From NCBI RefSeq assembly GCF_044324785.1, contig NZ_CP172128.1: a stretch of DNA of 64,000 nt. One strand, written 5' to 3'. The number at the start of each line of letters is the position of its first letter. The first letter of the stretch is position 1. Source of the stretch: Escherichia coli. Its GTDB lineage: Bacteria > Pseudomonadota > Gammaproteobacteria > Enterobacterales > Enterobacteriaceae. The position numbers were made by a program. This document shows, piece after piece, positions 27,155 to 30,100 of the stretch.

Positions 27155-30100
27155 TCACCCGCAACAAAAATGACGTGCACAACGGTTACGGGCAGGAAAC
27201 GGTCAGGGGTGTTTCAGTAAATCCTGGCGACGGGGTAACGCTGTCATGGCACCTTTTGCTGTCGTGGCAAGCGCACCACAGCGCTGGGCCTGTTCGATGA
27301 CGGATGCGAGTGCCTGCTCACCGGAGGGCATCCCCTCTGCCGCCAGCGCTGCCAGCAGACCTGCCACGAAGGCGTCACCGGCACCGGTCGTGTCCACACT
27401 CACCACCGGTGTTGCCGGGAAGTACAGGTTTTTTCCCTGCCAGCGAGCCATCACGCCATCCTTTCCTTGGGTTACCAGCAGCAGTGCCAGGGGATAATGT
27501 GATGCCAGAACATCGGTTCCCTTCCGGACATCCTGTTCACCGCTGATAAAGAACAGTTCCTCTTCCGATACCTTTGCCACATCCGCCAGCATGAGCGCCC
27601 GGTGCAGACACTCACGCAGTTGCGATGTGCTCTGCCACAGGTCAGTCCGGATGTTGGGGTCAAAGCTGACCCTGCCGCCAGCCTGCCGGATGTTCTCCAT
27701 GGCCTGAAACGTGGCGCTGCGGCAGGGCTCTGCACTCAGGGCATTGGAGCAGGTATGCAGCCATTCACCGGCACGAAAGGGCGGTAAATCATCAGGGGTA
27801 AGGAAAAGGTCTGCCGAAGGGCGCACCATAAATGTGAAGGTTCGTTCACCACCCGGCACCAGCGACACCACCACTGTGGAAGTCCGGTACAGAGGGTCGG
27901 TATGCATATACGCCGTGTCCACGCCCTCATCAGCCAGGGTTTTGCGCATAAAACGCCCGAAAGGGTCATCCCCCACACACCCGACAAACCCGCTCAGGCC
28001 CCCCAGTCGGGCCACGCCCACGGCAACATTGGCAGGCGCACCACCAGGGCACTGCAACAGCGTGCCCGGCTTCTCCGGTAATAAATCCACCACGGCATCA
28101 CCGAGACCCCATACTTTTACTGTACTCATTCATACTCCATGATTTTCATCAGTCATATTCAGCGGATGACAGACAGCTCAAACATCGCCATATCCGTGGT
28201 TCCGGCTGGAATTGGATACCAACCCGCATTCCGGAGCAGGGCAGCGAGGGCAGACACATCGCCGGTCAGGGGATGCAGCAACCTCCCCTGATAATCAAAT
28301 GCCGCCTCAAGACGTGAGCGGGAAAGATAAAAGCTGCCGGCATCCCCGTTCGGAACCACGACATTACGCCCCTCCCATTTCCGGTCGCTCAGTATCCGCC
28401 AGCACCAGCCCTGCTCCCTGATGGTTTCCAGGGCGAATGTCAGGCGGAACAGGTCAGTCTGTACCGACACATCACCAGAGCAGGCCTGCCACAGATACTC
28501 CAGCCTGCTGCGGATATCTTTCGCCCCGCTTTCACTCTGCAGGGCTCTGATATGTGCGGGGAAAACGGTGCTGTTTCAGTGCTGTGCTCCGCCAGCGGTT
28601 TAGAAACAGGTTTTCCTGGATTTTTGACGCAATCCGGCCATCCCGGCGGGCCAGATGCAGGGCTACCAGCCCGCACCAGGTCAGATGTGCGGCTTTCCCT
28701 GATACCAGCTGCCCGCTGGCGATATTGTCACTCATGGCGCTTACTGGCTGCTGATATCAAAAACCGGTGTTTCTCCGGCGATGACCGGGCCGGAGAACAG
28801 GGTTATCTCCTGGACACGGTCAGAGTCCGCCACAATCACCGGTGTCAGCGTGGACTGTGCTTTCTGCTGAAGTAACGCAAGGTCAAACCCGATGACGGGG
28901 TCACCGGTGCTGATCAGCTGGCCTTCCTGGGCAATACGCCGGAAACCCTCTCCCCTGAGGTCAACTGTGTTAATACCGAAGTGCACGAACAGTTCAGTGC
29001 CACTGTCGGTGCGGATGGAAAACGCGTGGTTTGTCTCCAGTATTTTACCGATAGTGCCGCTGACAGGAGCCACCAAGGTATCTCCGCCGGAAGGACGGAT
29101 AGCAATACCATCCCCCACTATTTTCCCGGCAAACACAGCATCCGGAACCGTGTCCAGAGGGACAATTTCACCGGACAGCGGTGCCATCACGCGGGTGACT
29201 TCCGCCGGTTTCTCATTTTCACTTATCAGTTGTTTAATCCTGCCCAGTAATCCCATTGTGCTTTCCTTCATTACGGGTGAACCGAAAGTACTGCCGTCAC
29301 CGACGGCAGTGGAATTATTTCAGGCCAGCGTCCACAGTGAGCCGTCCGTCAGCACAGCCTCGCCGTGAGCTGCATATAGCGACAACCGGCGGGTTCCGGG
29401 CTGCGGGTAAATACGGCTGGACAGGGTGGCATCGCCATCGTTAACGAACACTTCCACCGATGAACGGTCCAGGAAAACCCGTAGCGTCAGATATTCTGCG
29501 CCAGGCAGCGCGATACTGCGGTAACCGTCCAGCCCCTCATCCGGGTAGTGACGCCAAAGCACCAGCCGTCCTGCCTGGTTATCCACATACAGCCGGAGCC
29601 CGTCTCCCAGGTGGATGCCGTAATGCTCTGCCTGACTGTCGAGGGTATGCCACGTCAGCACCAGTTCCACGGCCTGTGCGTTCTCAGCCAGCAACTGCGT
29701 GCCACTGAGCCTTACAGGGTGTAACGGCTGGCACGTCCCGCGAAGGGATTCGGCTTCGCGAACCGGACGCTGACACAGACGACCATGGCGTTCAAAAAGT
29801 TCCCTCGGCAGGGTCAGACATCCGGCCCAGGCCTCACGCTTTGTAGGCATCGGGGAGTCCCACATATTCATCCAGGCCATGATGATGCGCCGTCCGTCCT
29901 CCGCGACCAGGGACTGCGGGGCATAAAAATCATGACCGTGATCCAGTTCTTCAAATGCCCCGCTCAGGGCAAAGGCGGCCCCCGGCTGCCAGTGACCCGG
30001 TAAAACTCCGCTCTGAAAGCGGTTGCGGAACCGGTATCCGCCGGGCGTCATCCCCTGCGGGGAGAACATCAGCCAGTGATGGTCGCCACAGCGGAAAAAG

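Follow-up and report, generated by a model that had tools for sequence, protein, structure and literature searches.

DUF2913 (PF11140; phrog_15786) is a gene type without an assigned function that is common on conjugative plasmids of enterobacteria, and it is not a sugar gene. By tblastn, DUF2913 is found on 3248 plasmid records, 2275 of which are conjugative, and Salmonella and Pantoea carry it in variable chromosomal islands. In a Klebsiella IncFII plasmid, an intact DUF2913 gene is found downstream of repA, where it overlaps the stop of the ProQ/FinO-domain gene preceding it; this arrangement suggests a two-gene module. No sugar genes were seen beside DUF2913 among the contexts inspected. 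The window (the whole 64,000-nucleotide stretch of Escherichia coli DNA analysed here) has a ProQ/FinO-family gene of its own at 960-1553 on the minus strand, with no DUF2913 gene adjoining it.

The second system relevant to this locus is the raffinose (raf) cluster. The raf cluster of the IncK2/Z plasmid NZ_CP055049.1, which we take to be the classical pRSD2 cluster (rafRABD plus rafY), has the order LacI-type repressor, alpha-galactosidase, LacY-type permease, GH32 invertase, PfkB kinase, and porin, and its kinase gene follows the GH32 gene after 95 nt, with neither a crr-like gene nor DUF2913 between them. The same adjacency of GH32 and kinase genes is seen on an E. albertii plasmid, from which the crr-like gene and the DUF2913 remnant described below are absent.

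The coordinates of the window correspond one to one to bases 3582-67581 of plasmid pLH10-b-1-A (NZ_CP100531.1), from an E. coli strain obtained from pooled poultry feces, with 100% identity over bases 16000-40999. The window carries a sugar cluster on its minus strand, with IS fragments on its flanks. By its gene content this is a cluster of the raf type: genes for a repressor, an alpha-galactosidase, a LacY-type permease, and a GH32 invertase are linked, as identified by RefSeq annotation, Pfam, and protein identity. In the order of transcription, and with assignments by annotation and Pfam, it comprises a LacI-type regulator (34299-35309), an alpha-galactosidase (32079-34205), a LacY-type permease (30747-32024), a GH32 invertase (29320-30750), a Crr-like PTS EIIA protein (28741-29256/29271; PF00358, 145 bits), the 577 nt DUF2913 remnant (28735-28159), a PfkB-family sugar kinase (27203-28129; PF00294, 198 bits), and a LamB/ScrY-type porin of 498 aa (25607-27103). 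The order thus agrees with that of NZ_CP055049.1, and at the protein level the two clusters share 83-89% identity in the alpha-galactosidase, permease, and invertase and 73% in the kinase. The two clusters differ in that the crr-like gene and the DUF2913 remnant are missing between the invertase and kinase genes of NZ_CP055049.1, and in that its 464-aa porin is unrelated, except at the N-terminus, to the 498-aa porin of the window. As the porins are unrelated, the raf cluster is a mosaic.

The surroundings of the cluster are rich in mobile elements. IS elements, some whole and some truncated, are densely packed at 5133-25370 and 35735-42642 (IS1414/IS256, IS21, IS100, IS3 family, IS91, IS110/ISEc45, and IS66/ISEc23). 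These surroundings also include an ALIL frameshift pseudoknot (22168-22284, 107.8 bits) and a toxin-antitoxin pair, RelE/ParE-CopG (39310-39869). At 52072-61228, the window contains a cluster with fdrA, DUF1116, carbamate kinase, DUF2877, cysteine hydrolase, and cytosine permease genes followed by nikB. The nikB relaxase gene is of the IncI1 type and 5'-truncated (59741-61228), and it is followed by a vapBC pair at 61413-62056.

The original prediction drew attention to three overlapping ORFs in different frames between the Crr-like and PfkB kinase genes, and an ORF listing confirmed both the coordinates and the pairwise overlaps of these minus-strand ORFs. ORF1 (28735-28532) begins with ATG and encodes 67 aa, with the stop of its frame at 28534-28532; the middle ORF, ORF2 (28676-28440), begins with GTG and encodes 78 aa; and ORF3 (28470-28159) begins with GTG and encodes 103 aa. 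The frame of ORF3 in fact extends beyond its annotated start (GTG, 28470), being open all the way from 28572 to its stop codon at 28161-28159 (137 codons), and it overlaps the frame of ORF1 by about 40 nt. The stop codon of the Crr-like gene, which encodes an EIIA paralog about 60% identical to the housekeeping Crr, lies 5 nt before the ATG of ORF1; when the sequence was read by eye, no clear Shine-Dalgarno sequence was found at this ATG, and Rfam gave no match in the remnant region. In RefSeq, PGAP annotates the pieces individually, each as a CDS for a "DUF2913 family protein" and with no pseudogene flag, namely WP_001313183.1 (28159-28470) and WP_072740748.1 (28532-28735), and in a few genomes one of the two is named "hypothetical protein".

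As they stand, the ORFs say little about their origin. ORF1 alone matches the Pfam DUF2913 profile below threshold (21 bits, profile positions 9-53), ORF2 and ORF3 as called have no Pfam match, and the separate pieces as encoded score 21 and 12 bits against PF11140, both under the 23-bit gathering score. It had been noted that the identity of the protein could not be seen by eye, and DUF2913 did emerge only from homology searches. When six intact homologs of about 200 aa were used as tblastn queries against the DNA of the locus, each produced two significant HSPs and no more, colinear and in different frames (paired HSPs, E = 1e-42 to 1e-46). The first, in the frame of ORF1, covers 28556-28735 and homolog residues 1-55, with 57-76% identity over 46-60 aa, and this part also matches PF11140 profile positions 9-53. 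The second, in the frame of ORF3, covers 28162-28515 and homolog residues ~73-197, with 42-51% identity over 107-122 aa. The outcome was therefore not three unrelated matches, or none, but a colinear match of the ORF1 and ORF3 frames to one family.

Because the ORF3 frame is open from 28572 and overlaps the ORF1 frame, removal of a single nucleotide suffices to give one uninterrupted product of 191-193 aa, in keeping with an ancestor of about 190-200 aa; the original prediction of a single disrupted gene of about 190 aa is right in its core. The repaired 193-aa translation aligns to PF11140 in one piece, with residues 18-159 against profile positions 9-155 of 207, and its 27.1 bits exceed the gathering score; it matches phrog_15786 with an E value of 9e-45, and it scores 192 bits against a family HMM that we built from 116 close intact homologs. 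A search of 5.8 billion proteins with this product gave 365 matches, in which the intact proteins were about 195-225 aa long and 42-48% identical over 85-99% of the query. No intact ortholog more than 48% identical was found in that search, the only matches above this level being copies of the locus itself. In a distant blastn search of plasmids, the kinase alone was found in diverged clusters. Compared with DUF2913 proteins of plasmids and islands, such as P0003 of Salmonella enterica and P0048 of Klebsiella and E. coli, the remnant can be aligned colinearly along some 170 residues with 42-48% identity, and it keeps 35 invariant columns, including W20, C21, and the ENLF..RW..TALKQ.RF and DLFRLT blocks. 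The remnant thus has colinear similarity to intact members of about 200 aa along residues 1-55 and ~73-197, and it departs from them in being no single uninterrupted ORF, its frame changing between 28565 and 28516. On this homology, ORF1 and ORF3 are the two parts of one ancestral DUF2913 gene of about 200 aa.

The original prediction invoked two frame changes, which would take the reading path out of the ORF1 frame, into that of the middle ORF, and on into the ORF3 frame. Using the family HMM, we scored all stop-free repairs, which comprised 49 candidates with one shift and about 19,500 candidates with two shifts via the middle frame. The best double shift (...RFPRHISEPCRVKAGRK/IRSRLEYLW) reached 195.6 bits and the best single shift 192.3 bits, a gain of 3.3 bits, and the middle frame has a 'PHI' and a 'KAGR' that faintly resemble 'PDI' and 'KQGR' of the family. 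When the 42-nt junction was shuffled with its composition kept, however, the mean gain from a double shift was 2.2 bits, and 7 of 30 shuffles equalled or exceeded 3.3 bits, so that a second frame change is without statistical support. The spacing of 'PHI' and 'KAGR' is off by two residues relative to the family, at most about 12 of the 78 codons of the middle ORF could take part in such a path, and ORF2 (28440-28676) has neither a Pfam match nor a tblastn HSP in its frame, the intact homologs giving HSPs in two frames and not three. A path through all three ORFs is therefore improbable, and the two-frameshift reconstruction was dropped. In the neighboring G+C-rich genes, the ORF listing shows that alternative-frame ORFs as long as ORF2 or longer are common, and ORF2 is a chance ORF that is outside the gene. 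The shuffled junctions scored 188-200 bits and the real junction (192.3 bits) no better, which indicates that there is no detectable homology at the junction in any frame. These results show that the reading frame is broken once, by a net +1 nt (equivalent to -2 mod 3), within 28516-28565.

A change of frame is not the only damage, because about 23 nt are also missing and a near-invariant helix is gone. All of the tblastn alignments are gapped between their two HSPs at the junction. In an alignment with 48 homologs, the segment R-D-V-x-P-D-I-E-W-L-L-K-Q-G-R-x-L-G-x-x-A-K is constant in length and several of its residues are invariant or nearly so. In the remnant there is a deficit of 8 residues at this point, the motif R-D-V-x-P-D-I-E-W-L-L-K-Q-G-R is absent, and in no frame are its near-invariant residues retained beyond what shuffled sequence would give. 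Thus 21 residues (63 nt), including PDIEWLLKQGR and forming the best-conserved helix of the family, are replaced by 40 nt of unrecognizable sequence (28516-28555 on the minus strand), which follow a T4C4 run at 28565-28558; ORF1 runs on beyond its homologous part to its own stop. Relative to the constant spacing of the family, the net change in length is -23 nt, and as this is -2 mod 3, it equals the observed frame offset of +1. One deletion of 23 nt could account for the lesion, and so could a gain of 1 nt in the T4C4 run together with in-frame losses.

P0048, an intact homolog, shows where the lost segment lies: its AlphaFold2 model (pLDDT 87) has an N-terminal domain of five helices and a small alpha/beta C-terminal domain. 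The segment corresponds to helix 3 (residues 52-72, pLDDT >90). The remnant has no recognizable counterpart of these 21 residues, which belong to the N-terminal helical domain, and by this model a protein that has lost helix 3 would have a damaged core even with its frame restored.

The same 40-nt junction is also a breakpoint in other genomes. In about 20 E. coli chromosomes, nucleotides 1-191 are all that is kept of the remnant, and they abut the end of an IS3-family element (TGAACCGCCCCGGG...), with the rest of the remnant, the kinase gene, and the porin gene deleted; the break (window position ~28545) falls within the junction. The junction in the window contains a CAGAG...CAGAG direct repeat, and its coincidence with the break at the IS3 end may be due to chance.

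A break beside a homopolymer raises the question of read support at the frame-change point, and the suspicion that the actual molecule carries an unbroken gene is strengthened by the fact that the frame change adjoins a T4C4 pair of runs, and by one ENA contig (P0002) that reads through the junction as ...HRFPAHIRALQ.... We found the remnant at ≥95% identity in 249 E. coli records from 245 genomes, with 245 of 254 places being chromosomal. Full-length copies were taken from a spread of 60 of the matches to the 249 records, and among the matches listed all 54 full-length E. coli copies are exactly 577 nt long and align in one ungapped piece. A copy on a Salmonella Saintpaul IncFII plasmid is 98.4% identical and has an identical junction. 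In metagenomes, a scan with a pattern that accepted either C3 or C4 gave nine contigs with the remnant, and all nine have C4 and the 577 nt length without gaps. Every copy that we examined is broken in this way, so the lesion is fixed among them. The occurrence of identical, indel-free copies in many independent assemblies argues that the break is not a sequencing error, and it settles the concern over read support; moreover, helix 3 is still missing after the frame is restored. A sequencing or assembly artifact has next to no chance of being the explanation. P0002 and a second entry, P0014, which are the only variant proteins and both seem to read through the junction, were considered as intact or alternative alleles and rejected, because all genes on both contigs, including those for the permease, kinase, and porin, are fragmented by indels. 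Both entries are chimeric cross-frame translations that stand in databases and derive from indel-ridden assemblies.

The E. coli and Salmonella copies differ by 9 substitutions in 577 nt, which is too few to judge selection. In the 5' half there are one synonymous and four nonsynonymous changes, two of the latter to proline. The 3' half has three synonymous changes and one nonsynonymous change, a ratio that fits residual constraint and is the one hint at an independent function of the 103-aa ORF, with numbers that are far too small to judge.

We also considered the proposition that the gene is functional in its present form and that programmed +1 frameshifting at UUU-CCC-C (28565-28558) yields a 191-aa protein with a divergent helix 3. 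The quadruplet CCC-C is prone to +1 slippage by tRNA-Pro, the required shift is indeed +1, and both frames are still open and overlap exactly around the quadruplet. On the other hand, the homologs of about 200 aa that we retrieved are all single uninterrupted ORFs, and the two-frame layout is shared only by near-identical copies of this locus. A reading of the sequence revealed no Shine-Dalgarno-like stimulator upstream of the site, the A-site codon (CGC) is neither a stop nor a rare codon, and the zero-frame stop is 8 codons downstream of UUU-CCC-C. The product of frameshifting would be without the helix 3 residues that are near-invariant in the family (D, W, K, Q, G, and R), and the junction that it would have to read scores like random sequence. 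We therefore regard programmed frameshifting as extremely unlikely. A looser version holds that the remnant is alive in some other sense, either because low-level +1 slippage produces a DUF2913-like protein with a remodeled helix 3 or because the C-terminal alpha/beta domain encoded by ORF3 is made alone and has been recruited to a role in the raf cluster. The openness of both frames in every copy would be accounted for in either case; we nevertheless consider it very unlikely that the remnant is alive in either way.

Comparison with the related raf clusters bears on how the remnant came to lie among sugar genes. In DNA alignments, similarity to the NZ_CP055049.1 cluster ends right after the GH32 stop codon and is regained, against the GH32-kinase spacer of that cluster, only in the final ~20 nt of the remnant. 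Because the related cluster lacks both the crr-like gene and the remnant, the two together form a lineage-specific segment of about 1.15 kb, which, as judged from these alignments, would be either an insertion here or a loss in the related cluster. At the edges of this segment a search for repeats and IS ends gave only short repeats at chance level. A terminator-like scan identified a G+C-rich stem-loop (29290-29310, minus strand) at the upstream edge of the segment, where it lies after the GH32 stop and before the crr-like gene; its stem of 9-10 bp is perfect (ACTGCCGTC-GGT-GACGGCAGT) and its T tail is weak. DUF2913 is not a regular component of raf clusters: it is absent from both related clusters, and the intact genes that we inspected lie in non-sugar contexts.

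We conclude, with a probability of about 0.9, that the locus is a non-functional DUF2913 pseudogene that resides, with the crr-like gene, in the ~1.15-kb segment that separates the invertase and kinase genes in one lineage of this mobile raf cluster. The features that speak against a pseudogene are that both halves are still stop-free and that RefSeq annotates both pieces as ordinary CDSs. If the locus is a pseudogene, ribosomes leaving the crr-like gene would make at most a 67-aa N-terminal fragment, and the following ~400 nt would be transcribed as an untranslated spacer before the kinase gene. The remnant would then add nothing to raffinose use and would be kept only by its linkage to the selected raf genes.

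The biological weight of such a hitch-hiking pseudogene is small, even in a raf cluster that is widespread in E. coli and Salmonella of poultry, pigs, and humans. Its practical consequences concern annotation and typing. WP_072740748.1 and WP_001313183.1 would be better flagged as one pseudogene, and indel-ridden assemblies have given rise to chimeric "proteins" of this locus in protein databases. The crr-like gene and the remnant also mark a seam that tells the raf variant with the LamB/ScrY-type porin from the IncK2-type raf cluster, and this seam may help in typing.

In kind, this is an ordinary pseudogene. Like other frameshifted pseudogenes in the accessory regions of mobile elements, it is broken in or just after a short homopolymer run and has lost internal sequence, and, as is also usual for them, it is fixed in a recently spread element and lies in IS-rich surroundings. 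The only notable difference from these pseudogenes is that PGAP gives it no pseudogene flag.
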